A stretch of DNA of 46,296 nt from an uncultured bacterium (GCA_945788485.1 CALZMB010000001.1:1-46296); one strand, 5' to 3'; shown: positions 14,726-44,760, numbered from the stretch's first letter. Notes: generated by a model not told the origin, from the letters alone. A program made the numbers and translations.

Positions 14726-16087
14726 TCATTTTATTTTTTTCAGGTCACTTGTCACAGTTTTAATCATCTTCCTCGCATCTTCAGAAGGTTCTCCGTTTTG
14801 CTTCGTCTCGATGATTTTGCTGGTGCGTATCTTTTTCTCGACTTCTTTCAGCTTATTAATGTTCTGCTGATACTGGTTTTTGCACTTACCAATGTCGTTA
14901 ATGATTTTATTTTGTCTGTCACGTTTGATTCTTATGATTTGTTTTGTATCTCCATTGTTTTCATTCTGCAGATTATTGACTTCTTTTAGAATGTCATTGA
15001 TATATTTATCACTGCTCCTGTCAACCATGTCTTTCAAAACTTTTATGCTGTCCTCATAGACTTTGTTCCTGCGTTTTTCGTATTCAAAGTTCAGCCTTTG
15101 TTCGTCTGGCTGTCCTTTTTCGGGTTTCTTTGTCACCTCGTAAGGATAATACACAGGCTTGTCTTCTTTTCCCTCAGCGAGAAGGAATATGTTGAGGACT
15201 ATGCTTGCCAAACAAAGGAATGAAAGCAAAGGTATGAGGATTTTTCGCTTTTTTTTCTCCTTGCCTTTATTTTTTTCCTTGTCATGTTGTATATTCTTTG
15301 TATCGTTATCATAACTCAACGGCTGTTTCTCGTTTTTGTAGTTTATTTTTACGATACAGAGAGACAGGTTGTCGTAATCTGCTTCGGCATTAGCCTCGAT
15401 ATCATTCAACAGAGAGTGTACGTTGTCTTTGATATCGCCTTTCTGACAGAATCTGCTTGTCAGCATGTTTTCCGGGAGTTTTCCCCATACACCGTCCGTA
15501 CACAACACGATGCGGTCTCCCTGTTGTAGCAGCGAGGTATCAGTTTCCGGCTCGATGTCATCAGATATTCCAAGCACCTTTGTTATGACGTTCGACATTT
15601 CAGCTCTGCGTGCCTCCTCTTCCGTGAGTTCGCCGTTTCTAACCATTTCGCCGACAACAGAGTGGTCAGCTGTGCGCATGACGGTTGTCATATCCCTGAG
15701 ATGATACAAACGGCTGTCACCGACATGTACGGCAATGAGTTTACGCGCCGTAACGAGAACGGCGACGCACGTTGTCCCCATGCCCAATAGCTGTCTGTTT
15801 TCCTTGACATGATTTCTCAGGCAATGATTAGCATAGCGCACCGCTTCTGTCAAAACTGTATCGGGTGTTTTAGCCTGCGGCGCATTCTTGACATAGCGTT
15901 GAATTGCCTGTGCGGCGAGCGACGATGCAAGCGCTCCGGCAGGTCCGCCTCCCATTCCGTCACAAACGACTGTAAGCAGTCCGAAATGCGTGTCCTGAAA
16001 GAGGCAATAGTCCTGGTTCTCTTTTCTGCCGCCTTGTCTTGATTCCATATACAAGGTGCAGTGCCATTTGCTTCTGTAAATATCCAT
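14726..16087 (-). CDS. PP2C (PPM) Ser/Thr phosphatase with TM helix and coiled-coil C-terminal domain
   Basis: GGRKENQD, VVCDGMGG, GMGTT, HVGDSR, LCTDG, DNLS; TM ILIPLLSFLCLASIVLNIFLL. Confidence 0.95.
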   Translation of the reverse strand: MDIYRSKWHCTLYMESRQGGRKENQDYCLFQDTHFGLLTVVCDGMGGGPAGALASSLAAQAIQRYVKNAPQAKTPDTVLTEAVRYANHCLRNHVKENRQLLGMGTTCVAVLVTARKLIAVHVGDSRLYHLRDMTTVMRTADHSVVGEMVRNGELTEEEARRAEMSNVITKVLGISDDIEPETDTSLLQQGDRIVLCTDGVWGKLPENMLTSRFCQKGDIKDNVHSLLNDIEANAEADYDNLSLCIVKINYKNEKQPLSYDNDTKNIQHDKEKNKGKEKKKRKILIPLLSFLCLASIVLNIFLLAEGKEDKPVYYPYEVTKKPEKGQPDEQRLNFEYEKRRNKVYEDSIKVLKDMVDRSSDKYINDILKEVNNLQNENNGDTKQIIRIKRDRQNKIINDIGKCKNQYQQNINKLKEVEKKIRTSKIIETKQNGEPSEDARKMIKTVTSDLKKIK

Positions 16088-16096
16088 GTCTGTTTG

Positions 16097-16495
16097 TCAG
16101 ATAAAGAAAGCGTCATCTTGAGCATCATCACCCCCATTGCACTCATCGGCATTGTCAATGCCGTAGTCGTCAGTGTCCGTCTGCTCGTCAGAGATGTCAT
16201 CTCCATCATAAGGTTCTACGTCATCGTATGGTTCTACATCATCATTGTCTCCGACATAAGGCAGTTCAAAATCCTCCTGCAGTTCTGCAGGCATCTCGTA
16301 ACCATCGGTCATGAGATCCTCGTATGTCTCTTCCGTCTGGTCGTTGGCATCCATCAGCTCTTGTATCTCTGGATTTCCGGCAGCCATTTCCATGAATCTG
16401 TCCTCTTCCTCAAGACTCAGTGCCCCGTCGAGCCATGCAGCGAACTGCTCTTCAGAGACCATGAGGTCATTGTCGTAATCGAAATTGTTGTCCAT
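16097..16495 (-). CDS. Small acidic protein, putative anti-sigma factor (ASD-like N-terminus)
   Basis: EEQFAAWLDGALSLEE resembles the start of zf-HC2/anti-sigma domains; begins 1 nt after the sigma stop; very D/E-rich tail. Confidence 0.55.
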   Translation of the reverse strand: MDNNFDYDNDLMVSEEQFAAWLDGALSLEEEDRFMEMAAGNPEIQELMDANDQTEETYEDLMTDGYEMPAELQEDFELPYVGDNDDVEPYDDVEPYDGDDISDEQTDTDDYGIDNADECNGGDDAQDDAFFI

Positions 16496-16496
16496 A

Positions 16497-17096
16497 TCAC
16501 ATCTCCTTTAGAATTGTCCTTTGATATTGTTCTTTTGCCAGCTTATGCTTGTTATAGAACGTGTTCATATTCATCCCCATGAGTTCGGCTGTCTCCTCAT
16601 TGCTATGTCCTTCAAGATAACGGAGCCTAATGAGATGGCTGTATCTCTTGTTGGGCATGAGTTTGAGAATTGTCTCAACATCATTACGGCTCAAAGAGGA
16701 TGTGTCCATGTTTATTGATTCCGGAAGTGTGTCTAATCTTACACCGTAGTCATCATTTTTTTCGGAAATTCTGTCGAATCTCACTTTCTGCTTTCTTTTG
16801 TATTTCTTATAGCAATAGAACAGACAGACGGTCTTGAGCCATGTGAAGAGTGTGCTTTCGAACTTGAATTTCTCGAGTTTGCACAATCCTGTGTCAATAT
16901 CTGGCATGAGGATATGCAGATAGATGTCATTCATGAATTCCACACAAGAGTCACAATCCGTGTGATAGTTGTCAAAAACGGATTTGAAGAGTGGGTAGCA
17001 TTTTCTGTAGAAGAATTCTCGCGTCACCCTGCCGTTACGCTCAAGCAGAGCATTGACGATTTCGTGGTCGTCGTATTCAGTGTTTTCGAAAAACAT
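16497..17096 (-). CDS. ECF-type sigma-70 factor
   Basis: Region 2 (KFKFESTLFTWLKTVC) and region 4 HTH (LIRLRYLEGHSNEETAELMGMNMNTFYNKHKLAK). Confidence 0.88.
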   Translation of the reverse strand: MFFENTEYDDHEIVNALLERNGRVTREFFYRKCYPLFKSVFDNYHTDCDSCVEFMNDIYLHILMPDIDTGLCKLEKFKFESTLFTWLKTVCLFYCYKKYKRKQKVRFDRISEKNDDYGVRLDTLPESINMDTSSLSRNDVETILKLMPNKRYSHLIRLRYLEGHSNEETAELMGMNMNTFYNKHKLAKEQYQRTILKEM

Positions 17097-17156
17097 TGTC
17101 TCAGAGGTTTGTGTATCGGTATTGGAGGTGTGTGTTTATGCCATGTACAGCAGTCA

Positions 17157-18020
17157 CTACTGCAGCTCTTCACTGCGTATGGTGATTTCGCACAGCAGCT
17201 CGCCGTTCATGTCATAATACACGTGTCTGAACATATATCCGGCATTTACCCATTTGGAGACAAGGCTACTGCTGTTGACGGTTTTTTTCTGTTCCTGTAC
17301 CAGTAAGTCTCTTACCGAAGCAATGAAAGTGGACATATTCTCTTCCGATATGCTGTTCTTGTCCAAGTCAAGCACTTTCTTTTCATAAACAATGCATCGA
17401 TTCTCTTCGATAAAAGAGACACCCATAAACTGTTCGCCATCCGTGACATAAGGTTTTTTCTTCAATAGTGAATCTGTAGTTTTGACAAAATTTGCCGTTT
17501 CTTCCTCAAGGTTCTTGAATTTATTGGCGACATGTTTTTTCCATTTGATGGATTGCCATATTTCCGGCAGTCTCGACTTGCGTCCCGGGGTATATGCTCC
17601 GAAGCACATTATTGTAGCGTCGCCTTCATTGAAAGCATATATGGTGCCTTTATACATATTCCCGTTTACCCTGTTCTGGAAATCGGCGGCATACACGTCT
17701 TTACCCATGAATGTGGCTGGATGGATTTCTCCTGCCGTCGCACCTTTAATGTAAATCATCGTGCTGTTTTTCAACTGATTTGTGATGAAAATAACCGGGT
17801 CTATTTTGTAGTCATATCCAAGAACCATACCTATGTTATAGAGAAATGTGCCAGTGTTGTTGAAACCAACCACTTCACAACCAACTCCTGGTATGTCTTT
17901 TTTATACACTTCCCATCCCTGCGGGACATTGACGGACAAGTAACTGTTCTCAACGATTTTTTGCGCTGAAACAGACATACTGACGAGCAGTGTCAGTAGT
18001 ATAGCCAATACTTTTTTCAT
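17157..18020 (-). CDS. Exported two-domain protein (PsbP-like N-domain; GspS/AspS-like C-domain, tentative)
   Basis: Signal peptide ending VSA|Q; SVNVPQGW start; C-terminus GYMFRHVYYDMNGELLCEITIRSEEL. Confidence 0.6.
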   Translation of the reverse strand: MKKVLAILLTLLVSMSVSAQKIVENSYLSVNVPQGWEVYKKDIPGVGCEVVGFNNTGTFLYNIGMVLGYDYKIDPVIFITNQLKNSTMIYIKGATAGEIHPATFMGKDVYAADFQNRVNGNMYKGTIYAFNEGDATIMCFGAYTPGRKSRLPEIWQSIKWKKHVANKFKNLEEETANFVKTTDSLLKKKPYVTDGEQFMGVSFIEENRCIVYEKKVLDLDKNSISEENMSTFIASVRDLLVQEQKKTVNSSSLVSKWVNAGYMFRHVYYDMNGELLCEITIRSEELQ

Positions 18021-18032
18021 TATTGAATGGTG

Positions 18033-18659
18033 TCAGAGTTTCAGAATGTTCTTTATTTTGAATTTGCTTGCCTGATATACCATCAGTTCGGCACGTTTGC
18101 CTTTGCATGTGACGACGACAGTACCCGAACGCTCCTCGTCGCCCTTATTTGCTTCTGCGGTGAGCGTGAGTGTGTTGCCGTTTCTCGTGATCTGAATCCA
18201 TTCTGGAGCCGTATAGTTCCAACTGTCATAATTGCAAGTGACAACCACCTGATGATTGTCTTTCTTTTTCCCGCCCGACTTGAATTCAAGGGAAGAGACG
18301 GACAGCGACAATTTCACTGGTTCTGTAGTCTGAGGATCTACCTTATAGACGGTGTCCTTTTCTTCTTTTTTTTGAGGGTTTGGGGTTGATTTTGGGGTTG
18401 GTTTGTGCTTTCTTATGTATTCAATGTTTTTCCGACAACCAGCAATCTGGTTGTCACAGTCATTTTTTCTTGCTTGAGAATCAAATGCTTTCTTTGCCTT
18501 AGTATATTTTTCTATTGCTTTGTTCTGTGCAGCCACAGTCATTGTAAGCTGCAGTTTCTGTCCCTCGTTATACAGTTTCTGAGCGGCAGCCTGCGCAAGA
18601 CAGTCGATTGATATAGAGGAGAAAAAAATGATGAATAATAATGAAAGTATGTTTCTCAT
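18033..18659 (-). CDS. Exported protein with helical N-domain and C-terminal BACON domain
   Basis: Signal peptide; WNYTAPEWIQITRNGNTLTLTAEANKGDEERSGTVVVT...LMVYQA shows the BACON W/N/R/Q signature. Confidence 0.85.
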   Translation of the reverse strand: MRNILSLLFIIFFSSISIDCLAQAAAQKLYNEGQKLQLTMTVAAQNKAIEKYTKAKKAFDSQARKNDCDNQIAGCRKNIEYIRKHKPTPKSTPNPQKKEEKDTVYKVDPQTTEPVKLSLSVSSLEFKSGGKKKDNHQVVVTCNYDSWNYTAPEWIQITRNGNTLTLTAEANKGDEERSGTVVVTCKGKRAELMVYQASKFKIKNILKL

Positions 18660-18664: not shown

Positions 18665-20077
18665 TTATTGTTTAATGGTGTTCTTTATTTTTTCAGCCCT
18701 GTCATAGAATTCCTTTGCTACGTCTGGCATATCTTCTGATTCGAAATCCTTTGCTTTCTGTTCAAATTCCGCCTGGGCTGCCGCAAGGGCATCTTTTGCC
18801 TTTTCTTTTTTCGTCACGATTTCTTTCGTGTCGGGTTTACCGGCTGTTATCTTCTCCATTGTGGCTATTGTATTCATATAGCCCTGATAAGCATCGATAT
18901 ATGCATTTTCGAAACCTTCGTCGTGTTTCTCGCCAACAGAGAAAGCGTCGTCAGAAGCTTTCAGCGTCTTTTGCGCATTGACTTTCAAAGAATCGTTTGT
19001 CGCCTGTTCAGCTATAGCAGCCTTTTCCATAGCAATCTGTTTGTTGCGGAATGTCACAGCACATACGATAGCGACAATCAGCACTGCGGCGGCCGCGAGC
19101 GACGAGATGAGGATTTTGGTGGATTTCGGCATATCTTTCTTCTTGCCGTCGAGATGTTCCATGGCGACTCTCATCTGCGATGCTGTCTGATATCTCACGT
19201 TCTGGTTCTTGTCCGTGGCACATTCTATGACATTCCGGATGCCCCGGTTCTTTATGACAGAGAGCGGAATCTTTTTGTGCAACTGCTTATCAAGCACCTC
19301 GTGAGTGGGACCTTCAAACGGCACATGGCCTACGACACACTGATATAGCAGTATGCCCATGGCATAGATGTCCGTGGTGCGGTTCTGGTGCTTCAGGTCG
19401 CCGACAGCGAGTTCCGGCGCGGCATATTCCGCCTTTCCCATGAACGAGCCGGCTGTTGTCAGTCCCCTGTCGTTTGTCGTCAATTTGTTCACCTGCTTCG
19501 CAATGCCGAAATCGATGAGTTTGATGTGCCCGTCGTCGGTGATCATGATGTTCGACGGGTCTATGTCGCGGTGGACATATCCGGCATCGTGCAGAGCCAC
19601 CAGTCCGTTCAGCACTTTTGTCACTATCTCTTTTGCGAAATGGACAGAATCTTTCTTATAGTCTTCATAGAGTTTTGCGGCGTATGTTATCTCCTTGCCT
19701 TCCTTGTCGGTGCATTTGCCTTCAAGGACATCAGAAAGCGAAACGCCATGCAGCAGTTCGCTGACGACATGATAGTGTTTTCTATTGTTCGGAGGAGTTC
19801 CTGTCTCCACCTCAACGAAGCCGAGCATCTCTACGAGATTGTCGTTGCGAAGCTGTATGGACGCTTCGCGTCTTGCGCGTTCTATAGCATGGAGGGGAAG
19901 GTCGTCGAAGAGGAATTTTATGGCTACAGGCCGTGAGATTTTCGAGATGATATCCACACATACACCTTTCATCACTTTTCCCATGCCGCCTTCGCCGATA
20001 CACGGGTCGTTGGTGTCCACCTCAAAATATATATTCTTTCTTTTCTCCTGTTCGCCTTGAAGTCTGATCTTTGCCAT
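18665..20077 (-). CDS. Membrane Hanks-type Ser/Thr kinase (HRDIDPSN variant) with helical extracytoplasmic domain
   Basis: IGEGGMGKV, VAIK, HRDIDPSN, DFG, YAAPE, DIYAMG; TM ILISSLAAAAVLIVAIVCAVTF. Start ATG 20077 (MAKIRLQG) chosen by match to the paralog at 41179. Confidence 0.95.
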   Translation of the reverse strand: MAKIRLQGEQEKRKNIYFEVDTNDPCIGEGGMGKVMKGVCVDIISKISRPVAIKFLFDDLPLHAIERARREASIQLRNDNLVEMLGFVEVETGTPPNNRKHYHVVSELLHGVSLSDVLEGKCTDKEGKEITYAAKLYEDYKKDSVHFAKEIVTKVLNGLVALHDAGYVHRDIDPSNIMITDDGHIKLIDFGIAKQVNKLTTNDRGLTTAGSFMGKAEYAAPELAVGDLKHQNRTTDIYAMGILLYQCVVGHVPFEGPTHEVLDKQLHKKIPLSVIKNRGIRNVIECATDKNQNVRYQTASQMRVAMEHLDGKKKDMPKSTKILISSLAAAAVLIVAIVCAVTFRNKQIAMEKAAIAEQATNDSLKVNAQKTLKASDDAFSVGEKHDEGFENAYIDAYQGYMNTIATMEKITAGKPDTKEIVTKKEKAKDALAAAQAEFEQKAKDFESEDMPDVAKEFYDRAEKIKNTIKQ

Positions 20078-20244: not shown

Positions 20245-20640
20245 TCAGTAAACTGGCAGACCGTATTGGTTCTCATCGTCGCTGTCAAGCAACATAAGCA
20301 CAAGAAACCATATCGCTCCTATAACAGTCAACACAATAAAATACCAAAATCCGCTACGTCCCGTATCATGCAGCCTGCGCACAGTGACAGACAGCATTGG
20401 CAAAAAATTGAAGATAACGAACAGAACTAACCCTATTAATCCTGCAATAACGCCAGCGAAGATACTTAATCCAACATTATCTCCAATAATGAGATATCCA
20501 AGCAATGAAAAAACTGCAAATGTCAGCGTGGCACACAACATCGAAGCAAGGGAAAACCACCAGTATTCTGAGCGTGGTGCCCTGCCTGAGAATGTCGCGT
20601 ATTTACCGTAGCATGATTTTATTGATTCTATGAAAGTCAT
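20245..20640 (-). CDS. DUF805 (YhaH/YhaI-like) inner-membrane protein
   Basis: KYATFSGRAPRSEYWWF...LSVTVRRLHDTGRSGFW...ENQYG. Confidence 0.95.
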   Translation of the reverse strand: MTFIESIKSCYGKYATFSGRAPRSEYWWFSLASMLCATLTFAVFSLLGYLIIGDNVGLSIFAGVIAGLIGLVLFVIFNFLPMLSVTVRRLHDTGRSGFWYFIVLTVIGAIWFLVLMLLDSDDENQYGLPVY

Positions 20641-20668: not shown

Positions 20669-21067
20669 TTACATATCTTTCGGACTTATGACAACAGTAA
20701 TGTCCTTAGTACTGGTATTGAATATGTACTGCAGTCCGATGGCGTTTTTCTTCAATACTTTCACCAGTTTCTTCGTCTTTTCAGTTTGCAGGTCGGCAAT
20801 GAGCGAGTTCTTGATGGAGTCAGAACTGATATTGTCGAATCTGTTGTCCTCCACTTTTATGTGATATGTCAGAATGCTGTCGCCTTTTTTGTATTCACAT
20901 TTCGTGAGGATTGTCCCGTTAGGCAGTTCTTTGTTTGATTCAGCATTGATGCCCTCTACTATTTTTTCAATCATAGACGCATCCCTGTTCTCGATTTTCT
21001 TCTTGCAACTGCCCAATGTCATAGACAAGAAAACAATGAGCAGCGCGGCTGTAAGTATGTTTCTCAT
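20669..21067 (-). CDS. Lipoprotein, possible GspS/AspS-pilotin-like fold
   Basis: Lipobox TLGSC; GTILTKCEY...LTYHIKV...LQYIF...ISPKDM. Confidence 0.7.
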   Translation of the reverse strand: MRNILTAALLIVFLSMTLGSCKKKIENRDASMIEKIVEGINAESNKELPNGTILTKCEYKKGDSILTYHIKVEDNRFDNISSDSIKNSLIADLQTEKTKKLVKVLKKNAIGLQYIFNTSTKDITVVISPKDM

Positions 21068-21070: not shown

Positions 21071-21994
21071 TTATAGAATATTGAATGTTGTGGTATAAAT
21101 AACATCTCCCGATTCGATGATTTCTACTTTGTATTCTCCTGCCTTCCAGAATCCCTCCTTAGGCGAGCCAAACTGGTCTATCTCTACAAGCTGGTTCTTT
21201 CTTGATTTCTCTATTGTGACGATAGACTCGGCAGAGTATTTCTTGTTCGGCTGATATATGGGTTTGCCATCTGGGCGTGTCACTTTTATCTGAAGAGTAT
21301 AGTCGGCTGTTGTTTCTCTCCACGGTCCGAACTCGATGCGTGCCTGTATGTATCTTGCATTGAAGCTTCTCAGTGGCTGGTCGTATGCCGTCTTTTCGTT
21401 GCCGTCGGCATCGAGCAGACGGAACGAGACATTCTGTATGAGGTCTCTCAGTTCGCTCGGCGGAAGATTTCGGCGCGCTTCCTCCTCAGCGCGTTCCGCT
21501 GTCTCACGCTCTACGGTGAGAGCGGTCTCGTAGGCTTCCTTGAAATCCTGATCAACATTGTTGAACGCCTCGAAATACTTCTTGAACACACTTGTGAAAT
21601 TCTCGGGCGTAGAGACATACACCTGAATTGTGGTTTCTACCTTTTTCTCCGTGACGGTGAGTTTCACTGTCTTGTGTTTGTTGTTCACGTCATTCGCCGC
21701 AATGATGGCAGGCTTGCGCTTGTACGTGTTTTCCTCTTTCCCGATTTTGTATGCCTTCCGGTGGAAAGTGTAGAGGATAGGTGATTCTTCGGTGAAAGTA
21801 ATCCAATACAGAATGCCTCCTTTTCTGAAACATACACTGTTGTCAGAGGTATCGACACTGGGGTTATAGCCGTTTTTATGCAAATAGGCATAGACAGCTC
21901 GCTGTGCTTTTTCCTGAGACTGTGTGAGGTCTCCTGCAAATGCTTGAACCGTCAAGGCGGCAAGCATACAGATAATCAGTTTGAATCTTTTCAT
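21071..21994 (-). CDS. Exported protein with YbjN-like N-domain and Ig-like C-domain
   Basis: Signal peptide; YLHKNGYNPSVDTSDNSVCFRKGG...AIIAANDVNNKHKTVKL resembles the YbjN/T3SS-chaperone-like fold; C-terminus WKAGEYKVEI...TTFNIL. Confidence 0.65.
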   Translation of the reverse strand: MKRFKLIICMLAALTVQAFAGDLTQSQEKAQRAVYAYLHKNGYNPSVDTSDNSVCFRKGGILYWITFTEESPILYTFHRKAYKIGKEENTYKRKPAIIAANDVNNKHKTVKLTVTEKKVETTIQVYVSTPENFTSVFKKYFEAFNNVDQDFKEAYETALTVERETAERAEEEARRNLPPSELRDLIQNVSFRLLDADGNEKTAYDQPLRSFNARYIQARIEFGPWRETTADYTLQIKVTRPDGKPIYQPNKKYSAESIVTIEKSRKNQLVEIDQFGSPKEGFWKAGEYKVEIIESGDVIYTTTFNIL

Positions 21995-35696: not shown

Positions 35697-36455
35697 TTAT
35701 TTCTTTTTTGTACCGATACATTTGAAGAGATATCCTATGGATATTTCAAGTGAGCTTACTTTAGCGGGGAAATTGCCAGCCAGCTCACTTGTCCCGAGGT
35801 AGTATCTCGCATTGGCATAGAAGCCGTCGTTTGCCGAGTTCTTGTTGAAGCGGTAGCCAAGGCCGACAGTCGCCTTTATGTCAAATCCCTTAAAGTCACC
35901 TGTTTTATATTCCATATAGTCGTATGACAACATATCCGGGCTTGAAGACATCGTCCCGGCTATTGTCGGACCTACCTCAATGTACAGGTTCTTCAGATGC
36001 TTTGTGTTGTAGCAGGGATAGAACTGGAGCATGATGGGCACTTCAAAGTATCCGAGCGTGAGATCGTCATCAGCCAGAGTTTTAACTGCATGCTGCTTGT
36101 AGTTAAGCTCCACTCCGATGCCGAACAGTCCCTGTCCGTCGAGCGGGCGGTTGCGGCTGTCCTTGCCGCCGAAACGGATATTGGCTGCTAAGCCGCCGCC
36201 GAAGGATATGCCGCTGCCATCGTAGATTTTCAGATCATCGCCCTCGCTCATCGTTGACACTCCGGCTCCGACACGCGGACCGACCGACAGCTCATAGTTG
36301 TAGTGTTTGCCCTTTACCTCAACATGTGTTGTCGTCTTCTTTCTGTTTTCAACTCTCTGTTTCTGTCCGAAACCGTCATCTTCTGTCACAATCTGTGCCT
36401 TTGCCGTCATGGCGACAGCAAGAAAAGACAGAATAAAGATTGATGTTTTTTTCAT
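35697..36455 (-). CDS. Outer-membrane beta-barrel protein (porin/PorT-like, OMP_b-brl_2)
   Basis: Signal peptide; VGPRVGAGVS, IGVELNYKQ, LGYFEVPIML, YIEVGP, VGLGYRF, NARYYLG, ISIGYLF. Confidence 0.88.
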   Translation of the reverse strand: MKKTSIFILSFLAVAMTAKAQIVTEDDGFGQKQRVENRKKTTTHVEVKGKHYNYELSVGPRVGAGVSTMSEGDDLKIYDGSGISFGGGLAANIRFGGKDSRNRPLDGQGLFGIGVELNYKQHAVKTLADDDLTLGYFEVPIMLQFYPCYNTKHLKNLYIEVGPTIAGTMSSSPDMLSYDYMEYKTGDFKGFDIKATVGLGYRFNKNSANDGFYANARYYLGTSELAGNFPAKVSSLEISIGYLFKCIGTKKK

Positions 36456-38042: not shown

Positions 38043-38657
38043 TCAGTTCACGACGGGCATGTCTTTTTCTTTCGACATGTCTTTCTTCTGAATTTCAGGC
38101 TCTACATCCTGTTTTTCATTATAGAGTTCCTGACGTTTTGTTTTCTTACGTCTGACGTTGGTTTTTCTGCTTTTTTTCTTTTTTGTCGCTCTCTTTGCTG
38201 TTTTTATTGACGATTCTACGGGTGCGTATTTGTCTGTAGAATCCCTGTTCCATTCTGTCTGTTCTTCCTCGGCAGCTACTGGTATTTCTGTCGTCTGTAC
38301 TTTATCGTCCTTATTGTTGAAGACAGACCATACCGCTATGCCTGCACACAACACGAGAAGCATGGCTGCAGCTGCAGCGGCACTTTTTCTCATTTTTGAA
38401 TACGGGTCTTTCAATGTGTTCCAGTCGAATTCCCATACGTCACCGAGTCTGATGCTGTCTTTTCTTGTCACAGGGAGCGATGTCCCTTTCAGCATTCTGT
38501 TTCCGTTGAGATAAGTCCCGTTGCTGCTTGTGTCGCTTACGGTCATCCTGCCCCAAAAACTGACGGATATGACGAGATGGTGCCGGCTCACCTTGTCAGT
38601 GCTGTCATTGATGACGATGTCACAGTCGTTGCCTCTGCCTACAATTATTCTTTTCAT
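38043..38657 (-). CDS. FHA-domain protein with a single TM helix
   Basis: IVGRGNDCDIVI...VSRHH...SSNGTYLNG...IRLG; TM AAAAAAMLLVLCAGIAVW. Confidence 0.95.
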   Translation of the reverse strand: MKRIIVGRGNDCDIVINDSTDKVSRHHLVISVSFWGRMTVSDTSSNGTYLNGNRMLKGTSLPVTRKDSIRLGDVWEFDWNTLKDPYSKMRKSAAAAAAMLLVLCAGIAVWSVFNNKDDKVQTTEIPVAAEEEQTEWNRDSTDKYAPVESSIKTAKRATKKKKSRKTNVRRKKTKRQELYNEKQDVEPEIQKKDMSKEKDMPVVN

Positions 38658-38684: not shown

Positions 38685-39581
38685 TTACTGTTTTTTCATG
38701 AATCTTTTTCTCAGTTGCCGCGTGCTATTCCGTAATGCTTCTTTTGCCTTGTGCATGCAGCTGTACTGGTATTCGGAATCTTTCTTCATGTCTATCACAA
38801 TGGCGGTAAGGTTGTCATGGTCGCCGCCTTCTGCCCATCCAGCCTCATCTACTGTGTCTGTCAGGAACTGTACCTCGTCTTCGGGTTTGTCTTTCTCATT
38901 GAAGAGGGCGAGCATCTCGTTCTCCGGCTTCACGTTCCAAATGCCGTCACAGCAGAGTATGAACCTGTCGCCCTTCCTGTATGGTATCTTCTCAACGGTC
39001 ACCTCTATTGTGTTGCGTATTCCGAGAGCGCGCGTGATGATGTTCGAGAAGCTCGATTGGCGGGCCTGCTCCTCAGTCATTAAACCTTGTGCTACCATCT
39101 CGAAGACTTTCGAGTGGTCGAATGTGCGGAAGATTTTCTTTCCCCTGCGCAGCTGGTAAATCCTGCTGTCTCCGACGTGTGTCAGATAGGCGCATCTGGC
39201 AGTGATGACGAGTATTGTTGCCGTTGTGCCCATTCCTCTGAGAGGTGGCTCTTCGTATGCGCGCTGGTAAATGGCGTCATTGGCGGCTGAGACGGCGGCT
39301 GAGACGGCGGCATCGCTGAATTCTCCTTCTGTCTTCGTCTTCAGTGTCTTCAATATTTCCGCCACAGCGATATGCGATGCTGTCTGTCCTCCTGCCATGC
39401 CTCCCATGCCGTCGCACACTGTAAGCAGCACGGCTGAGGGTGTTGATGTGCCTCCGTAGCAATCTTGGTTCTCTTTCCTGCCTCCTACACCTGTCCTGCC
39501 CCATGCCTCGCATATATCATTGTTGACGATAAGTTTCCGTTCGTCAAGTCTTGTGACATTTATTTTTTCTAAGTTACTCAT
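38685..39581 (-). CDS. Soluble PP2C phosphatase
   Basis: GGRKENQD, VCDGMGG, GMGTT, HVGDSR, LCCDG, HDNLT; no TM segment. Likely start ATG 39581. Confidence 0.95.
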   Translation of the reverse strand: MSNLEKINVTRLDERKLIVNNDICEAWGRTGVGGRKENQDCYGGTSTPSAVLLTVCDGMGGMAGGQTASHIAVAEILKTLKTKTEGEFSDAAVSAAVSAANDAIYQRAYEEPPLRGMGTTATILVITARCAYLTHVGDSRIYQLRRGKKIFRTFDHSKVFEMVAQGLMTEEQARQSSFSNIITRALGIRNTIEVTVEKIPYRKGDRFILCCDGIWNVKPENEMLALFNEKDKPEDEVQFLTDTVDEAGWAEGGDHDNLTAIVIDMKKDSEYQYSCMHKAKEALRNSTRQLRKRFMKKQ

Positions 39582-39613: not shown

Positions 39614-41179
39614 TCAATATTTGCGCAAGAGCGCAGAGATTTTGTTGACATATACGGGGTCTTCTGCCTCAGAGGCATATTTGTATGCCTTGTCGAGCAG
39701 ATCTTTCGCATATCTCAGGTTGCGGGCTTCTCCTCCTGTCAGGTTCGGGCCTTCGTAATAGTTGCAAGCAAGTTCGTAGAGGGCAGGGTAATAGTTCGGT
39801 TTCGTTTCTGCTATCTGTGTCAGAATTTTGTGTGCCTTTGCAGGGTCTGGGGACACTGTGCCTTCGAGATTTGCCTGCATGGTGACATATTCGTCTCCGA
39901 GCGTGAACGAGCCTGATGAGATGGCATACAGACGGCTCATGACGAATAGTGCCTCTATGTCTCCGCTTTCCGCCTCTGCCGTCAGGTTTTCAAAGCCTTT
40001 CTTCGCCTCGCTCGGATTGAGCATCTGGCGACGGATTGCGGGCATCTCGTTTATTGACGGGGTAGCTTCTGTTTCTTTTTGGACGATTGTCTGTTCTTCA
40101 TGGGTTTTATCTTTGCTTGATGATATGAGTTTCGTAATGAAGACAGCCATGCAGACCAACAGTGTGATAGAGACGACAACGGTGCCTGCCACAGCGGCGA
40201 ATTTCGCTAATGTCATGCCAAAGATATATGTAGTGTTGTCAGTGCCTGCAAGGCTGTCGAGTTCAGCCCTGAAGAGTGCGGCGCTCTGGTATCGTTTGGT
40301 GCAGTCTTTCTCTGTCGCTTTGGCGATTATTCTCCTGAGTCTCGGGTTTCTGATTTGCTTCAAAGGCATGTCAGAGCGCAGATGTGCGTTGAGCACGACA
40401 TTGGCTGGTCCCTCAAACGGCAGGTGTCCTGTTGTCAGCTGGAATAGCAGGACACCGATGGCATAGATGTCGGTAGGCTTGTTCTGGTTTTTGATATCTC
40501 CGATGATAAGCTCCGGCGCGGCATACTGCGGCTTGCCCATGAACTGTCCGGCTGTCGTGAGGTTGCGGTCGTGGGTCTTAAGACCGTCAACTTGTTTCGC
40601 TATGCCGAAATCTATGAGCTTTATCTTCCCGTCTCTTGTGATCATGATGTTCGAGGGGTCGATGTCACGGTGTATGTACCCGGCATCATGCAATGCCATG
40701 ATACCTGACAGGATTTTCTTCGTCACGGTGACAGCGAACTGCTCCGGATCATTGTTATACATATTGTATAACATCTGTGCGAATGGCACGATGTTGCCGT
40801 CCCTGTCTGTCAGTATGCCCTGCAGCAGGTCTGAGAGTGAGACACCCATCAGCAGTTCGCTGACTACATGATGTCTGACTGACACCATGCCGTCTGCCAT
40901 ACGTGTTTCGACAGAGAGAAATCCCATCATCTCCACAAGGTTGTCGTGCATGATGCGTATGTTCGCCTCGTTCTCCGCTCTTTGTATCACGTTTTGCGGC
41001 AGTCCGGAATACAAGAACTTTATTGCTACCTCGCGTGTCTCATGCGTATGGACATTGATGCGCTTTCCGCGATACACCTTGCCCATACCGCCTTCTCCAA
41101 GCAGTTTGGATGATGTGTCGAATTCGTAGTATATGCCAACCTGTTTCTCTTTTTCTCCTTGTAGTTTTATCTTTGCCAT
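39614..41179 (-). CDS. Membrane Ser/Thr kinase (HRDIDPSN variant) with Sel1-like extracytoplasmic repeats
   Basis: LGEGGMGKV, VAIK, HRDIDPSN, DFG, YAAPE; TM; AESGDIEALFVMSRLY and ALYELACNYYEG...RNLRYAKDLLDKA. Start ATG 41179 (MAKIKLQG). Confidence 0.95.
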   Translation of the reverse strand: MAKIKLQGEKEKQVGIYYEFDTSSKLLGEGGMGKVYRGKRINVHTHETREVAIKFLYSGLPQNVIQRAENEANIRIMHDNLVEMMGFLSVETRMADGMVSVRHHVVSELLMGVSLSDLLQGILTDRDGNIVPFAQMLYNMYNNDPEQFAVTVTKKILSGIMALHDAGYIHRDIDPSNIMITRDGKIKLIDFGIAKQVDGLKTHDRNLTTAGQFMGKPQYAAPELIIGDIKNQNKPTDIYAIGVLLFQLTTGHLPFEGPANVVLNAHLRSDMPLKQIRNPRLRRIIAKATEKDCTKRYQSAALFRAELDSLAGTDNTTYIFGMTLAKFAAVAGTVVVSITLLVCMAVFITKLISSSKDKTHEEQTIVQKETEATPSINEMPAIRRQMLNPSEAKKGFENLTAEAESGDIEALFVMSRLYAISSGSFTLGDEYVTMQANLEGTVSPDPAKAHKILTQIAETKPNYYPALYELACNYYEGPNLTGGEARNLRYAKDLLDKAYKYASEAEDPVYVNKISALLRKY

Positions 41180-41222
41180 TATTTTAATGATGTGTGTTAT
41201 TCTTTTCTGTCTTTCTGTTAGT

Positions 41223-41942
41223 CTAATACAACACCGTACGTGAAGCACCGTCTTGAGTTGCTGTCGGCGAATAGAAATCGTTGGACATGACAGGCGTATC
41301 TGCCGGCGCATATCCGTCCTTTATCCCCGTAGCTGCCTGCATGTCTTCAAATTCTTCGTCTTCCGCCAGTCCTGCAGATTCAGCGTTGAACATCTTGACG
41401 ATGAACCTGTAGTGTTTTCCGATTTGTATTATGTCGTTCTCTTTCACGCCAAGCTCTTCGTAACGGCCGTCTTCGCCGTTCACCGTCGTGCCGTAATCCG
41501 AAGCATAGTCTGTAATGGTTATGATATATCCCGCCGACGTATCATACTCTTTCTGTATGTTCAACACGGCATGTTCTGCAGATACTGTGAATTCTTTCAG
41601 ACACACATCGCATCTGTCAGTATGGCCTATGATGTTGCGTCCGAGGTACAGCGGGAAAATTTCTCCCAAAAGTCCTCGCGATATTGAAAACAACACTCCG
41701 ACCACCACACGGTTCTGCATGGCGACGATACGTTGTCCTTCGCTTTGCGCCATTTGAGGCATGACCGCACCTTGCTGTTGCGCAGCAACGGGAGTTGTCT
41801 CGGCAATGCCGCTTCCAGGCACAAAAGTACGTTTCGTGTCGAACGATTCGCGAGCATAGAGGTTGCTGTATATTTCAGAAATATTGTCGTCGGCGACGTT
41901 TCCGTAATCGACGCCCGGTACGACAGTCTTGTTTTGTGACAT
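41223..41942 (-). CDS. FHA-domain protein (degenerate pThr pocket) with disordered flanks
   Basis: VVGVLFSISRGLLGEIFPLYLGRNIIGH...VSAEHA...SDYGTTVNG...IQIG; paralog of the FHA at 28488. Confidence 0.88.
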   Translation of the reverse strand: MSQNKTVVPGVDYGNVADDNISEIYSNLYARESFDTKRTFVPGSGIAETTPVAAQQQGAVMPQMAQSEGQRIVAMQNRVVVGVLFSISRGLLGEIFPLYLGRNIIGHTDRCDVCLKEFTVSAEHAVLNIQKEYDTSAGYIITITDYASDYGTTVNGEDGRYEELGVKENDIIQIGKHYRFIVKMFNAESAGLAEDEEFEDMQAATGIKDGYAPADTPVMSNDFYSPTATQDGASRTVLY

Positions 41943-42042
41943 GGCTAAATTATAAATTGTCGATTAATTACTAAGCAGGCAGTGCAAGGATTATAGAATA
42001 ATTATGCACACCTGCTTATGTCATGACATCCGTCGCGTTGTT

Positions 42043-42663
42043 TCATGCCATTCTGAAGACAAGCATGGTATTCCCCATTTGCACTTTGTCGCCTGTCTTC
42101 AGGTTGCATGCCTTGCCTGGAGCTATTGGCACACCGTTTACGACGACCGGATTGTTTGCCTTGACTGATGTTATTTGATACACTACCTGACCGTTTATCT
42201 GCACTGTGCGCATCCCTGCATGCAGACGGCTCATTGCGATGTCTGGTGTCAGCTGTATCTGCGCCTTGCTGTCAGAACTTCTTCTGCCGAGGTCGAACGA
42301 TTTTCCGTGCGGAAGTCTCAACACTCCGTAGTTCTGCCCGTTGAATGTGACGGTAAACTCTCCGTTTGTCTTCATCTGCAAAGAAGATACGAGCTTTGTC
42401 TTGCCATAGTTTTCATCCATACCGGAATTGTTGTTGTTCTGAAGGTTTTCCACTATTTGCGTCTCGTTGTTTGCTACAACACCTGCACTTGTGATGTCGG
42501 CATGTGTCGGAGCCTGCGGCTGCACAGGCTGGTTCTTTTTTTCCTGTTCGCTCAACAATACATTGAACGGTATGGAGAATGAACATTTCGGACAACGGAA
42601 AATCTCGGGCGGACGGCGTTGGAGATTGAATCTCCTGCCGCATTCTGGACACTGTATTATCAT
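42043..42663 (-). CDS. Zinc-ribbon (MJ0042-like) - linker - FHA protein
   Basis: MIIQCPECGRRF...FRCPKC; LGRRSS...MSRLHA...VVVNG...LKTGDKVQMG. Confidence 0.9.
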   Translation of the reverse strand: MIIQCPECGRRFNLQRRPPEIFRCPKCSFSIPFNVLLSEQEKKNQPVQPQAPTHADITSAGVVANNETQIVENLQNNNNSGMDENYGKTKLVSSLQMKTNGEFTVTFNGQNYGVLRLPHGKSFDLGRRSSDSKAQIQLTPDIAMSRLHAGMRTVQINGQVVYQITSVKANNPVVVNGVPIAPGKACNLKTGDKVQMGNTMLVFRMA

Positions 42664-42687
42664 AGATATTATGTTTTGGTTTGTTTC

Positions 42688-43449
42688 TTATTTCACATAT
42701 ACAACTACCATGCTGTCGTCAAACTTTCCCCACATCTGCGGATGTTGTTTGCCGCCAGTGTCTTTTATGACATGCGGGTTGACATAATTGAACAGCTCGC
42801 GGGCTGTAACTTTCTTGTCACCATTTTTGTCAGCATAACCTCTGAAACCCTCAAGGATTCTGCTTATAAAATACGAGTTGCGCATGTTTGGATGCTCCCA
42901 TGACACTTCAGTTGAACGGCTTGACGTGTAGAGCATCACACTCGTCTTGTTTGTCTTGCGGCGCTGCGTGTTGCCGTTATTTTGTTTTTTCTTCTGCAGA
43001 TTCAGTCCTCCGGAATAACATGCCATGGCAAGAATAATCTTGCGGCGCGCCTTGGCGCTCTTCATTATCTCCTGTATTTCATTGTATGTGATGATGCTGT
43101 TTTCGTCTTTCGTCTCATAACATGTCAGGCCGCCCTGCAGACCATGCCCACTAAACACAAAGATAATCTCGTCGTTGACTGTCGATTTGGCGAATTCCTT
43201 GCGCATCACTTTCAGAATATGGCTCTTCGTCGCATTCTCGTTCAGAAGCATGAAAACCCTGCTTCCGTTATAGTCGTGGAAGAAATGTGAAACGGCACGC
43301 GCATCGGCAACGGAACATGGCAGTGGAGGTGCTACCTCTGGATATTTGTATTCACCCAACCCTATCGATACCACATATGTCTTCTGAGCATAAGACACGC
43401 CGCAACATAATACGAATGTAAATAAAATAGAAAATAAATACCTTTTCAT
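42688..43449 (-). CDS. Exported caspase-family (peptidase C14) protease
   Basis: Signal peptide ending VSYA|Q; LLNENATK, FVFSGHG (His), IILAMACYSG (Cys), ADKNGDKKVTARELFNYV, QHPQMWG. Confidence 0.92.
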   Translation of the reverse strand: MKRYLFSILFTFVLCCGVSYAQKTYVVSIGLGEYKYPEVAPPLPCSVADARAVSHFFHDYNGSRVFMLLNENATKSHILKVMRKEFAKSTVNDEIIFVFSGHGLQGGLTCYETKDENSIITYNEIQEIMKSAKARRKIILAMACYSGGLNLQKKKQNNGNTQRRKTNKTSVMLYTSSRSTEVSWEHPNMRNSYFISRILEGFRGYADKNGDKKVTARELFNYVNPHVIKDTGGKQHPQMWGKFDDSMVVVYVK

Positions 43450-43489
43450 ATTTCAACTCTGTTTTTATTTGTCCTGTATTTATAGAACT

Positions 43490-44173
43490 TTATTTTCCTG
43501 TAAACTTACACTTGCAGCTGCTGTTCGGGCATTTTCCTTCAGCAAGGATGTTCTCGTAGAGTTTAATGCCGAAATGATATCCGCATTTCGGACAACAGTA
43601 TTTACGCTTGAAATAACGTTCGTTCTGGTCCTTGCGCTTTATCAGCGACTTGCTTTTAATGTCAACAATCACCCATGCTATCGCCACGGCTAATACTGTT
43701 CCTGACGCCTTAATGATGGTGCCGACATTCTCGTCTCCGATAAAGTCATTCGGGATGAGCATTGACATTATGAGACCGAGGAAACCGCCGAGCGACATTG
43801 ATGCCATACGTATCATCATGATGTTCGACTGTTTCATGTCCAGATCCATCTTGTTCCGGTTATAAGCCTCGTAAATCATTTTCAGCCCGCTTATATCAAC
43901 TGCCTCAGGTTCCTTTATGACAATCAGCTCTTTTATAAAAAAGGTGAATTTTGCACCAAGACGCACTTTAGTGTTCAGCGTGACAGGAACTTCTTTCGTC
44001 AAACGTAAAAACTTGTTGTTTTGAAGAATGTATGTCCCGTTGGTCGAATTGTTGTCACGAAGAAACATCTTTCCTGATTTTTCATCCATAGTGAAAACAG
44101 CGTGTTGGCGGCTGATACTTGTTTCGGTCAACGGGAAAGGCTGACTGCCTGTCTTTCCTATAATAATTTCCAT
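43490..44173 (-). CDS. FHA - 2 TM - zinc-ribbon membrane protein
   Basis: IIIGK...ISRQHA...STNGTYI...VRLG; two TM helices; YCCPKC...KCPNSSC. Confidence 0.92.
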   Translation of the reverse strand: MEIIIGKTGSQPFPLTETSISRQHAVFTMDEKSGKMFLRDNNSTNGTYILQNNKFLRLTKEVPVTLNTKVRLGAKFTFFIKELIVIKEPEAVDISGLKMIYEAYNRNKMDLDMKQSNIMMIRMASMSLGGFLGLIMSMLIPNDFIGDENVGTIIKASGTVLAVAIAWVIVDIKSKSLIKRKDQNERYFKRKYCCPKCGYHFGIKLYENILAEGKCPNSSCKCKFTGK

Positions 44174-44211
44174 ATATTTAGCGTTTTGTCATTTTATTTA
44201 TATATTTTTTC

Positions 44212-44760
44212 TCATATTATCTCTATAAGATAATCGCTCGGCACGAAATCTATTGACACGGCAGCGATGTCTTCGAGTTGAACGACGACATGTTTGTTTC
44301 CGTTTATGCGTTTTATCACTCCCTCAACTCCAGAAAAAGGACCCTCACATATTCTAACTCTCCTTCCTACACTGCTTATGTATTCATTCATCTGAAGATA
44401 TGTCATGCCACAATCTACATATTCCGCAACACGCATGAAATTTTGCATCGGACGCTCGCCTACAGTCATTATTACATCTGCGGCATCACCGGCTCCATGT
44501 CTCATCATATATCTCATAGGAGCGAAATTCTTGTCATACATCTTATGCTCAGTTATGGTTCTCTGACTTGACTTTATGAATATGATATTATGGATAGCAG
44601 GAACAAGCATCTTTCGACGATTCCATCCCTTGCCAACATAACAGTATCTCATAGGGAGATAGTTTTCAATTCCTATCTCATCCAAATACATCTTCATCTT
44701 CAACTCTCGGTTGTAGGTCACACGCATCGGAAACCAATGTATTTCATCAGGATTTGTCAT
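44212..44760 (-). CDS. upxY: UpxY-family (NusG paralog) transcription antiterminator
   Basis: HWFPMRVTYNRE...IENYLPM...LVPAIHNIIFI (NGN domain); GRRVRICEGPFSGVEGVIKRINGNKHVVV (KOW). Likely start ATG 44760. Confidence 0.93.
   Translation of the reverse strand: MTNPDEIHWFPMRVTYNRELKMKMYLDEIGIENYLPMRYCYVGKGWNRRKMLVPAIHNIIFIKSSQRTITEHKMYDKNFAPMRYMMRHGAGDAADVIMTVGERPMQNFMRVAEYVDCGMTYLQMNEYISSVGRRVRICEGPFSGVEGVIKRINGNKHVVVQLEDIAAVSIDFVPSDYLIEII

Follow-up and report, generated by a model that had tools for sequence, protein, structure and literature searches.

What does a gut bacterium do with four Hanks-type Ser/Thr kinases, three PP2C phosphatases and six FHA domains encoded alongside proteases and an ECF sigma factor? 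Such signalling through Ser/Thr phosphorylation has hardly been studied in gut Bacteroidales, and we analysed a 46,296-nucleotide stretch of uncultured bacterial DNA (the window) for which a sequence-only reading had proposed a stand-alone trans-envelope sensing and response system. We infer the purpose of the locus; our leading explanation, held with about even confidence, is that its long form serves as such a system, probably for conflicts at the cell surface.

Gene content and arrangement

Twenty-eight consecutive minus-strand ORFs run from upxY (ATG at 44760) to the third PP2C gene (stop at 14726), as first counted, and Pfam bears out the domains then named: four Pkinase, three PP2C and six FHA domains (five in FHA proteins and one fused to kinase 2), together with Peptidase_C14, Peptidase_M6, Sigma70_r4_2/ECF, OMP_b-brl_2, WG_beta_rep, BACON and DUF805 (Table 1). 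The picture of many overlapping or near-adjacent genes stood in part. Intergenic gaps span −4 to 210 bp and 22 of 27 are at most 63 bp, but only two gene pairs truly overlap, with five more lying within 9 bp. Because five gaps measure 100–210 bp and a perfect 14-bp palindrome lies at 34219–34249, internal transcription breaks are allowed; sigma-70 promoter and terminator scans of the window returned about chance level. Independent metagenome-run contigs cover 14808–21561, 21547–32040 and 35704–45007, none holding the full locus; for most of the gene order this excludes a chimeric assembly. Hydrophobic segments occur in the four kinases, two PP2Cs and two FHA proteins. Neither the window nor the DNA flanking the locus in the complete genome G109 showed an integrase or a toxin–immunity pair. 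An FGE-sulfatase gene (GC 0.60) lies upstream, beyond the leader, and was excluded from the operon.

Table 1 Features of the locus, in minus-strand order.
Feature	Position	Strand	Evidence or remark
Candidate Bacteroidota −7 promoter element TATTTTTG	45362..45369	-	Weak; position only
Conserved leader RNA, two exclusive folds	44902..45237	-	Covariation; z −5.5; no Rfam match
UpxY-family antiterminator	44212..44760	-	NF033644 score
FHA1: FHA, hydrophobic segment(s), C-terminal Cys-rich ribbon	43490..44173	-	Pfam, topology
C14 caspase-family peptidase, intact His-Cys dyad, signal-peptide-like N terminus	42688..43449	-	Pfam, motifs
Zn-ribbon-FHA2 adaptor	42043..42663	-	Pfam; linker T89 kept in 12/13
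FHA3 adaptor, core gene	41223..41942	-	Pfam; T236, T39, T6 conserved
STK1 single-pass kinase, HRDIDPSN and GKP, Sel1/TPR-like periplasmic part	39614..41179	-	Motifs, topology
PP2C1, soluble	38685..39581	-	Pfam, topology
FHA4-TM membrane anchor	38043..38657	-	Pfam, topology
WG-repeat protein, exported	36506..38014	-	Pfam
Outer-membrane beta-barrel	35697..36455	-	Pfam
Variable lipoprotein, GC 0.33, first half of exchangeable cassette	34268..35677	-	Locus comparison
M6 metalloprotease, GC 0.38, payload of exchangeable cassette	32159..34204	-	Pfam, motif, locus comparison
Core exported all-beta protein, no known family, C-terminal Ig-like sandwich	30936..32162	-	Model pLDDT 88
Small lipoprotein-like protein, distant relative of 20669–21067 family	30451..30897	-	E 1.5e-4
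Very acidic protein, single-helix anchor, DxDxDG-like loops	29308..30240	-	Topology
Cys-ribbon-FHA5 adaptor, conserved linker threonines	28488..29147	-	Pfam; threonines kept in 11/11, 11/11, 9/11
PP2C2-TM, tail varies between strains	27308..28486	-	Pfam, topology, metagenome contigs
STK2: canonical kinase, FHA6, two TM segments	25836..27311	-	Pfam, motifs, topology
STK3: canonical kinase, TM, 930-aa RHS/YD-like beta-hairpin ectodomain, no DPxG	22027..25713	-	Pfam, model
Exported protein, weak TY-Chap1 match	21071..21994	-	E 0.0013, below cut-off
Small lipoprotein	20669..21067	-	Sequence
DUF805 membrane protein, strain-variable	20245..20640	-	Pfam, metagenome contigs
STK4 single-pass kinase, HRDIDPSN and GKA, helical periplasmic part	18665..20077	-	Motifs, topology
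Exported helical and BACON protein	18033..18659	-	Pfam; directly 3′ of STK4-type kinase in 26 other loci
Exported protein, no relative in any retrieved locus	17157..18020	-	Locus comparison
ECF sigma factor, DxxD motif is S50-C-V-E	16497..17096	-	Profile
Soluble acidic candidate anti-sigma factor	16097..16495	-	Weak zf-HC2 match, E 0.09; adjoins ECF in 4 other loci
PP2C3-TM	14726..16087	-	Pfam, topology

The first gene of this long candidate operon encodes an UpxY (123.9 bits on NF033644, cut-off 100) that is only 22–26% identical to those heading orthologous operons. Upstream of it, a 340-nt leader can form two mutually exclusive folds, a long rod or a terminator hairpin with a U tract (44907–45011), both supported by covariation, and scores below the gathering threshold of every Rfam family. 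The leader precedes 15 of the 39 loci with enough upstream DNA and is not locus-specific, as it also heads unrelated accessory operons, including LRR adhesin-like genes. Further upstream lies a weak candidate for a Bacteroidota −7 promoter element, for which only position argues because the window holds 27 matches where 24 are expected.

A patchy operon family

Sequence comparison across 74 loci (from the best 80 matches) places the window locus in a patchily distributed family of gut-Bacteroidales operons, as its long form. The marker kinase occurs in 23 of 400 same-genus genomes (8 of 183 of high quality), in one of 400 drawn across the order and in none of 300 drawn across the phylum. Gene neighbourhoods are conserved in other genomes, several of them from Prevotella-like gut bacteria: G109 keeps the order with all 28 slots but M6 (S41 instead), Lipo159, DUF805, hyp287, the anti-sigma gene and PP2C3, and Prevotella merdae keeps it too. 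Among retrieved loci of at least 11 kb (n = 61), 55 have both FHA and PP2C and all 61 have at least one envelope gene. Flanking genes differ from genome to genome, and host families are mixed in a quick kinase tree. In the stretch read, the commoner short form has no UpxY, C14, M6 or ECF pair and carries instead a 2xFHA-TM-trypsin fusion (central TM segment in 40 of 43, GxSGxP in 39 of 43). An UpxY-headed operon with C14, M6 and ECF thus describes the window but not the family, in which these genes are, on this comparison, accessory members.

Cultured carriers are P. merdae Marseille-P4119, X. rarus 109, B. ilei Marseille-P3208, P. faecalis FXJYN30E22, P. pectinovora P4-76 and P. massiliensis TSDC17.2-1.1. 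Two Bacillota-titled matches (L074 and L126) are probably mis-binned, L126 being so judged because its kinase is identical to that of P. pectinovora. Plasmid and phage carriage were rejected: the sole PLSDB match (OY726067.1) is a short form among chromosomal genes, typed non-mobilizable and discounted as a sign of mobility, and viral contigs gave only distant kinases (26–50% identity over short stretches).

A core order stable across families, a chromosomal site among housekeeping genes, the lack of a close viral-contig relative and a lone plasmid-labelled record full of chromosomal genes would also suit a controller of envelope maintenance or morphogenesis that tunes the assembly and turnover of envelope proteins rather than serving conflict, with the actinobacterial fhaA-fhaB-pstP-rodA-pbpA-pknA-pknB cluster as its presumed analogue. 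We consider this unlikely, given the scarcity of the locus within its own genus, the absence of any peptidoglycan enzyme from the window (Pfam) and the exchange of protease slot and tails between strains.

The T6SS and ter markers came out largely as the sequence-only reading had it. Neither TssD nor TssC turned up in G000 (79% complete), the complete genome G109, P. merdae or X. rarus; TerD was found in none of five carriers; and the window has no vWA domain by Pfam, the three VWA_2 matches of the genome sitting on another contig (C28). The fifth carrier, B. ilei, does have a T6SS, and the locus shares the membrane-anchored writer–eraser–reader triad by which PpkA/PppA/Fha1 fire that machine; with TssD and TssC some 1.7 Mb away there and not found in the other four, a threonine-phosphorylation pathway firing an unlinked secretion machine is very improbable.

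Kinases, phosphatases and FHA adaptors

Four of the five kinases read from the assembly sit in the locus. Hanks-type Ser/Thr kinases typically carry a catalytic-loop Lys (HRDxK) and a P+1 Thr or Ser. STK2 and STK3 are canonical in this respect, and STK1 and STK4 have Asp for the Lys and Lys for the P+1 Thr, a double change that marks a kinase clade (73 of 74, from the best 80 matches). Such D/K-swapped kinases could be inactive or of different specificity. Exterior domains diverge faster than cytoplasmic ones (25–62% versus 50–84%), as is usual for membrane receptors. The VAxK, HRD..N, DFG and xPE motifs are intact in all four kinases, which have the beta3 Lys, HRD Asp and DFG Asp of Hanks-type enzymes, so that none is a pseudokinase by the three-residue rule of PMC12599244, and all three PP2Cs keep all five motifs searched.

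The STK3 ectodomain consists of tandem beta-hairpin repeats of RHS/YD type, in Pfam (RHS_repeat, E 6e-12) as in the model, which has Foldseek matches down to E 2.5e-30; overall TM-scores against RHS toxins and teneurins are only 0.13–0.31. We rejected an RHS polymorphic toxin, as STK3 lacks the DPxG autoprotease motif and its C-terminal domain is conserved among orthologues.

In sequence, the pThr pocket of FHA3 is degenerate (GH for GR, DYG for NG). The protein has three conserved threonines (T236 in 56/56, T39 in 54/56 and T6 in 48/56, versus a median column count of 15.5), which lie inside linkers with no other conservation. FHA2 and FHA5 also have conserved linker threonines (Table 1), and the conserved Thr motifs are likely phosphosites.

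The order PP2C2-STK2(FHA)-STK3, a PP2C and then two kinases of which one has FHA, is that of the KKP triplet (PMC11341870); the kinases score on PD-T4-6 and MAD6 models, and the distribution is patchy, all of which would fit a KKP-, Stk2- or PD-T4-6-like anti-phage system in which infection leads to death or arrest of the cell. Yet no cold-shock domain (CSD) matches any of the four kinases in Pfam, all four are membrane-anchored, half of the operon is exported and no prophage context was seen in flanks or viral contigs. The PADLOC matches are to generic kinase, PP2C and caspase domains, those of the kinases covering the kinase domain alone. We therefore regard an anti-phage role as improbable.

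Putative outputs and the exchangeable cassette

In the ECF motif SCVE the Ser is invariant (8/8) and one acidic residue is retained, and a candidate anti-sigma gene adjoins. A profile search found no solved relative at E 0.01. Assignment to ECF43 was rejected, given SCVE in place of a QTTA-type motif with Thr and the adjacent candidate anti-sigma.

C14 has SGHG and ACYS (66.6 on NF047832, cut-off 140) and M6 has HEFCHCLGIPD. Both N termini look signal-peptide-like by eye; since the two proteases thus appear exported, they lie beyond the direct reach of FHA adaptors in the cytoplasm. The proposal of a stand-alone trans-envelope system keeps its footing in conserved gene order, topology and T6SS independence (four of five carriers), but not a direct line from adaptors to C14 and M6.

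The lipoprotein–protease slot is filled by M6, S41 or C10 and is replaced between strains. In 22 distinct loci the gene after the lipoprotein is M6 in seven, S41 in six, C10 in four, no protease in two and unassigned in three. At 0.33–0.38, the GC content of the cassette is below the operon's 0.45 and the genome's 0.52, and at both cassette edges (32165 and 35697) two contigs of metagenome run X3 continue for about 1.1–1.2 kb unlike the window. Of the metagenome-run evidence on the cassette, only these run-on contigs were used, missing cover of 32.2–35.7 kb in runs X2 and X8 being set aside. In X3, 38660–45007 differs from the window by 1% and 20555–25714 by 12–13%; as the latter tract includes the STK3 kinase domain, strain variation is not confined to ectodomains.

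The 408-aa core protein has no clear Foldseek match, its best VIA-align hit (Z 7.3, rmsd 2.6, 78 residues) covering only the C-terminal Ig-like part and not the N-terminal repeats. A possible likeness of the small lipoproteins to pilotin-like domains was set aside, as Pfam gave it no support.

Payloads from broad secreted protease families (M6, C10, S41), PorV of the type IX secretion system in four of five carriers and a leader shared with LRR adhesin-like genes are what one might expect of a protein-foraging or adhesion module in which proteases are deployed to harvest peptides once host or dietary protein is sensed at the cell surface. The operon has no SusC/SusD or peptide transporter (Pfam), and Bacteroidota foraging loci are not known to use anything near this number of FHA domains (six), kinases (four) and phosphatases (three), which makes this reading quite improbable.

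A model of function

In the favoured trans-envelope model, one leader fold would lead to termination and the other to read-through, and UpxY would keep RNA polymerase running over 30 kb. The outer-membrane barrel, lipoproteins and periplasmic WG, BACON and all-beta proteins would detect contact or envelope damage, joined by the kinase ectodomains (RHS-like, Sel1-like and helical), and the single-pass kinases would cluster. The kinases would phosphorylate the conserved K/R-x-T-V/I-V/I-P-G-type threonines of the FHA adaptors. Once phosphorylated, the adaptors would assemble on the membrane-anchored FHA proteins into a phospho-dependent scaffold, reset by the PP2Cs. The scaffold would act as a direct switch of the 2xFHA-TM-trypsin protease in the short form; output in the long form would run via the ECF sigma factor, by release of the anti-sigma and/or Ser50 phosphorylation, and via the exported proteases (C14 in the periplasm, M6 at the surface together with its lipoprotein), which lineages and strains exchange in the fashion of effector cassettes.

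A more specific proposal, speculative as a whole, is a receptor-kinase surveillance system of a separate type: RHS/teneurin-like and other ectodomains would recognise contact with rival cells, predators or host surfaces, the relocated-Lys kinase clade would write a private phospho-code on FHA scaffolds, the response would be a periplasmic and surface protease cascade ending in a protease–lipoprotein cassette that is exchanged as polymorphic effectors are, and the two-state leader would also gate peptide-antibiotic-like and adhesin operons.

Comparison with known systems

No published description of the operon family was found in the open literature searched, in line with the sequence-only reading, which knew of no characterised system of this make-up. 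The actinobacterial pknA-pknB-pstP-fhaA/B cluster and GarA/OdhI-type FHA switches are presumably alike in their receptor kinase, TM PP2C and soluble and TM FHA proteins, including FHA proteins with phosphorylatable Thr tails; unlike that cluster, the locus is accessory and patchy, lacks PASTA domains and cell-wall enzymes and has an exchangeable protease cassette. TerY-P triads likewise set kinase, FHA and PP2C within one operon. So does the Deinococcus vWA-STK-FHA-PP2C operon (bioRxiv 10.64898/2026.01.23.701218), but the locus has no vWA gene and TerD was not found in the five carriers, and TerY-P or ter membership was rejected. The MoxR-vWA ternary, GAP1 and EACC1-caspase conflict systems (PMC7159879) were rejected too, since the window has no Pfam match to their MoxR/vWA, GTPase-GAP1 or EACC1 core and C14 stays below the NF047832 cut-off.

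The T6SS threonine phosphorylation pathway (PpkA, PppA, Fha1; PMC5995506) shares a membrane Hanks kinase, PP2C and FHA reader across the envelope, whereas the locus is without tss markers in four of five carriers, has four kinases, three phosphatases and six FHA domains, and appears to have proteases and an ECF sigma as outputs. The KKP prophage module PfpC-PfkB(FHA)-PfkA(CSD) (PMC11341870) matches the gene order at 28486–22027, but the locus has no CSD and no prophage, its kinases are membrane receptors, and the triplet is embedded among the 28 genes of an envelope operon.

Hanks kinases are known to switch some ECF sigmas (PMC13147305), and most of these lack the acidic residue of the motif and an anti-sigma (PMC7826278). 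In the same two papers, ECF43 (EcfK/PknS, EcfP/PknT) and ECF59, 61, 62, 217, 267 and 283 likewise stand beside TM Hanks kinases and share an altered DxxD motif with a conserved Ser, the latter six being described from Planctomycetes or Proteobacteria only; the locus differs in having SCVE, not QTTA, and an adjoining soluble candidate anti-sigma. RHS toxins and teneurins (PMC3482391) share the beta-hairpin repeats of the STK3 ectodomain, but STK3 has an N-terminal kinase and TM helix, no DPxG and no toxin tip.

Bacteroides capsule operons with UpxY/UpxZ and opsX leaders (PMC11685472) also place upxY first in a long operon after a long structured leader. A capsule (upxYZ) operon was ruled out here, as neither upxZ nor polysaccharide biosynthesis genes follow upxY; the leader is a covarying terminator/rod switch, and the family's UpxY is optional and exchanged.

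FHA matches listed in five carrier genomes lie inside the locus except for one solo gene in four of them, so that the locus holds nearly all FHA domains of its carriers. Within the literature searched, the kinase clade with a Lys/Asp-Thr/Lys active-site swap (which the 2025 bacterial Ser/Thr kinase atlas may list), an RHS/teneurin-like ectodomain on a receptor kinase, a Bacteroidota ECF that is a candidate for linkage to kinases and putative UpxY antitermination of a non-polysaccharide operon would each be the first of their kind, as would, within the searches made, a two-state leader RNA unlisted in Rfam.

Content and arrangement of the operon

Twenty-eight consecutive minus-strand genes run from upxY to the gene of the phosphatase PP2C3-TM. 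The domain counts of the sequence-only reading (four kinases, three PP2C phosphatases, six FHA domains, C14, M6, ECF, barrel, WG, BACON and DUF805) are all recovered, the catalytic motifs are intact and UpxY scores above its cut-off. Of the 27 intergenic gaps, 22 are at most 63 bp and two are overlaps; the GC content of the operon, 0.45, is below the 0.52 of the assembly. Metagenome runs also contain near-identical DNA: the eight best-matching ones include runs from four studies that carry the label pig gut metagenome. Contigs of metagenome run X2 cover 14808-21561, 21547-32040 and 35704-45007.

Features in and around the operon, with positions in the window
Feature	Position	Strand	Remarks
Operon	14726-44760	-	upxY to PP2C3-TM
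Leader RNA	44902-45237		before upxY
Lipoprotein gene	34268-35677	-	exchangeable cassette
M6 protease gene	32159-34204	-	exchangeable cassette
Palindrome	34219-34249		perfect, 14 bp; between lipoprotein and M6 genes, within the cassette
408-aa protein gene	30936-32162	-	
Short imperfect repeat	29140-29320		AAGTTGACGAGTTGAA twice plus complementary arm; between acidic gene and FHA5; many further copies among metagenome contigs
BACON gene	18033-18659	-	
Partial FGE-sulfatase (C-lectin-fold) gene	45730-46296	-	GC 0.60; upstream of leader
Downstream debris	11645-14663		
DDE transposase fragments	14005-14663		within debris
AT-rich membrane protein	13085-13669		within debris
IS110 fragment	12513-12980		overlaps start of second WG-repeat gene, downstream of operon
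AAA_14-DUF4143 ATPase	10205-11530	+	PADLOC PDC-S01 match; relative (63%) also downstream of the locus in genome G298

This anatomy makes a signalling architecture well supported. Surface and periplasmic proteins would cluster the receptor kinases, pThr-FHA scaffolds would then form, and the proteases and the ECF factor would respond to them. We give about an even chance to the fuller reading, an accessory trans-envelope sensing system that probably acts in surface conflict, whose stimulus and purpose we infer.

Distribution and locus layouts

The STK1 kinase domain is present in 23 of 400 same-genus genomes at an E-value of 1e-60 or better, and the profile of its clade hits one of 400 genomes when the order is sampled evenly by family, and none of 300 when the phylum is sampled. 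Scanning species genomes yielded at least 507 stretches encoding a relative, the best 80 of which gave 74 loci for comparison. Within this best-80 set, titles are Prevotella, Alloprevotella, Xylanibacter, Bacteroides, Phocaeicola, Parabacteroides, Muribaculaceae or unclassified, and two Bacillota-titled loci are probably mis-binned. Prevotella accounts for most of the closest records (73-79%) and is therefore the likely genus of the window as well. OY726067.1 is labelled a plasmid in PLSDB, yet carries chromosomal genes and a Cas9-like gene.

Two layouts recur. The long form of the window is matched gene for gene in P. merdae and in G109, a complete genome; most of the proteins shared with them are 45-74% identical. 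P. merdae and X. rarus are cultured carriers of the long form. The short form begins with FHA3, a D-type kinase, a K-type kinase, PP2C, FHA-TM, 2xFHA-TM-trypsin and the 408-aa protein, followed by FHA, PP2C and a D-type kinase, and then by BACON or WG, barrel, lipoprotein and protease. By BLAST against the window's genes, FHA and PP2C are found together in 55 of 61 loci of at least 11 kb, and every one of the 61 holds at least one envelope gene. A role in envelope maintenance is a rival reading that we regard as unlikely. Accessory genes are sparser among the 61 loci (C14 in at least 8, ECF in at least 7, UpxY in at least 6, M6 in at least 5), these counts being lower bounds because the loci span just 10 kb either side of one kinase; wider stretches (e.g. 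G348, G307, G298) hold complete short loci without C14, ECF, UpxY or M6. The flanks vary among genomes and are mostly housekeeping genes, and a quick kinase tree sets the rear (STK4-like) clade apart and mixes host families inside clades, a pattern that fits lateral movement.

A second related locus type, with LytTR, FHA1-like, C14, Zn-FHA, PP2C and other kinases, was seen in L003/L004, L006, L012, L013, L020, L026 and L039, and some loci of this type start with a weak copy of the leader. The FGE-sulfatase domain is kinase-fused or kinase-adjacent in C14-FHA-PP2C loci of other genomes (L003/L004, L006, L017). In G078 (L032 661-6670) the locus runs on with two more C14 peptidases, a serpin and further kinases.

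Kinases and FHA readers

STK1 and STK4 carry the motifs HRDIDPSN and GK(P/A)xYAAPE, which we take to place Asp at Lys168 and Lys at Thr201 in PKA numbering. Among 128 distinct kinase segments from the fetched loci, the Lys swap accompanies Asp in 73 of 74, Thr or Ser accompanies the canonical catalytic-loop Lys in 53 of 53, and one segment has neither. Since the Asp-class kinases were selected by search and form a single clade, the pairing amounts to one event, strictly kept. We infer a relocated catalytic lysine in these predicted kinases. The 930-residue ectodomain of STK3 is modelled as tandem beta-hairpins (pLDDT 80); structurally it comes closest to RHS cores and teneurins, for which E-values are strong but TM-scores only 0.13-0.31, and the DPxG motif was not found in STK3. 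The BACON gene directly follows an STK4-type kinase in 26 other loci; arrays of two to three secreted Endonuclease I genes, possible payloads or chance neighbours, come immediately after it in L068, L093, L100 and L105.

In FHA3 (n=56), T236 is kept in 56 sequences, T39 in 54 and T6 in 48, against a median of 15.5 over 128 linker columns, the commonest contexts of the N-terminal threonines being RGTVVPG and NKTIVPG. FHA5 (11 sequences) and Zn-FHA2 (13 sequences) show a similar pattern. GarA and OdhI are precedents for FHA phosphosites, and by analogy the conserved linker threonines are likely phosphosites driving FHA assembly.

A conserved leader and an exchanged UpxY

The leader folds far better than its shuffles (z -5.5) and has no Rfam match; of 39 loci with sufficient upstream DNA, 15 have a relative of it immediately ahead of their first gene. 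Across 18 sequences, pairing reaches 95.9% in a long rod, where 16 of 27 pairs show two-sided changes, and 96.2% in a terminator hairpin exclusive of the rod, where 10 of 19 do. Both outscore 500 of 500 shuffles on the pairing and two-sided-change measures, a comparison inflated by drawing the structures from the same 18 sequences, as well as all slid controls. Because further copies in five genomes stand ahead of upxY genes, Cys-repeat radical-SAM peptide clusters and surface proteins, the leader is a general head of accessory operons. In L132, L138, L140 and L149 it heads Cys-Xaa-Xaa-Xaa repeat peptide/radical SAM clusters, once with an intervening upxY, and a second, partial copy lies at a contig end of the window's own assembly (C81:42-148).

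Between the window's UpxY and the UpxY proteins at the head of orthologous operons, identity is 22-26%, against 50-75% for its neighbours; judged by these identities, the UpxY slot is kept and its occupant exchanged. In capsule operons, UpxY is known to load at pause sites in the leader (PMC11685472).

Exchangeable proteases and the sigma factor

The gene after the lipoprotein was compared in 24 rows, which amount to 22 distinct loci once each of two identical pairs is counted as one. It encodes M6 in seven, S41 in six, C10 in four and no protease in two, and is left unassigned in three. The lipoprotein-protease cassette is low in GC, and at both of its edges contigs of run X3 carry on for some 1.1-1.2 kb of sequence that does not resemble the window, the 6.3 kb upstream differing by 1%. 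The PP2C2 tail is replaced in runs X2, X3 and X8, DUF805 in X3 and X6, and the STK2 tail in X3. An arms race confined to ectodomains would not account for a further X3 tract of 12-13% divergence, which takes in the STK3 kinase domain.

C14 and M6 are likely exported, since both have signal-peptide-like starts by eye. Proteases so placed might serve protein foraging, a purpose we consider improbable. Of 43 short-form 2xFHA-trypsin proteins, 40 contain a central TM segment and 39 the catalytic-serine motif; these proteins are predicted to link phosphorylation directly to proteolysis.

The operon's ECF factor reads S50-C-V-E, with Ser50 invariant in eight of eight, at the site where ECF factors carry DxxD (PMC13147305). 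Next to it lies a gene whose match to an anti-sigma domain is weak (E 0.09).

Relation to known systems

The sequence-only reading saw no T6SS or ter genes in the window. Among five carrier genomes searched, TerD was found in none, and TssD and TssC were not found in four (the window's 79% complete assembly, G109, P. merdae and X. rarus); in B. ilei, TssD and TssC are present, far from the locus. Control of such an unlinked secretion machine is the least probable of the alternatives. FHA matches listed for the five carriers fall inside the locus, except that four of these genomes each have a single solo gene outside it. The PADLOC search for a known defence model returned matches to generic domains; phage defence as the purpose is rather improbable, somewhat less so than foraging.

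No description of the operon was found in the literature searched, outside which lay a 2025 kinase atlas; the parts are of known kinds. Kinase-linked ECF groups compared by description include none from Bacteroidota. The operon lacks the CSD kinase that defines KKP (PMC11341870), yet its PP2C-kinase(FHA)-kinase order is alike.
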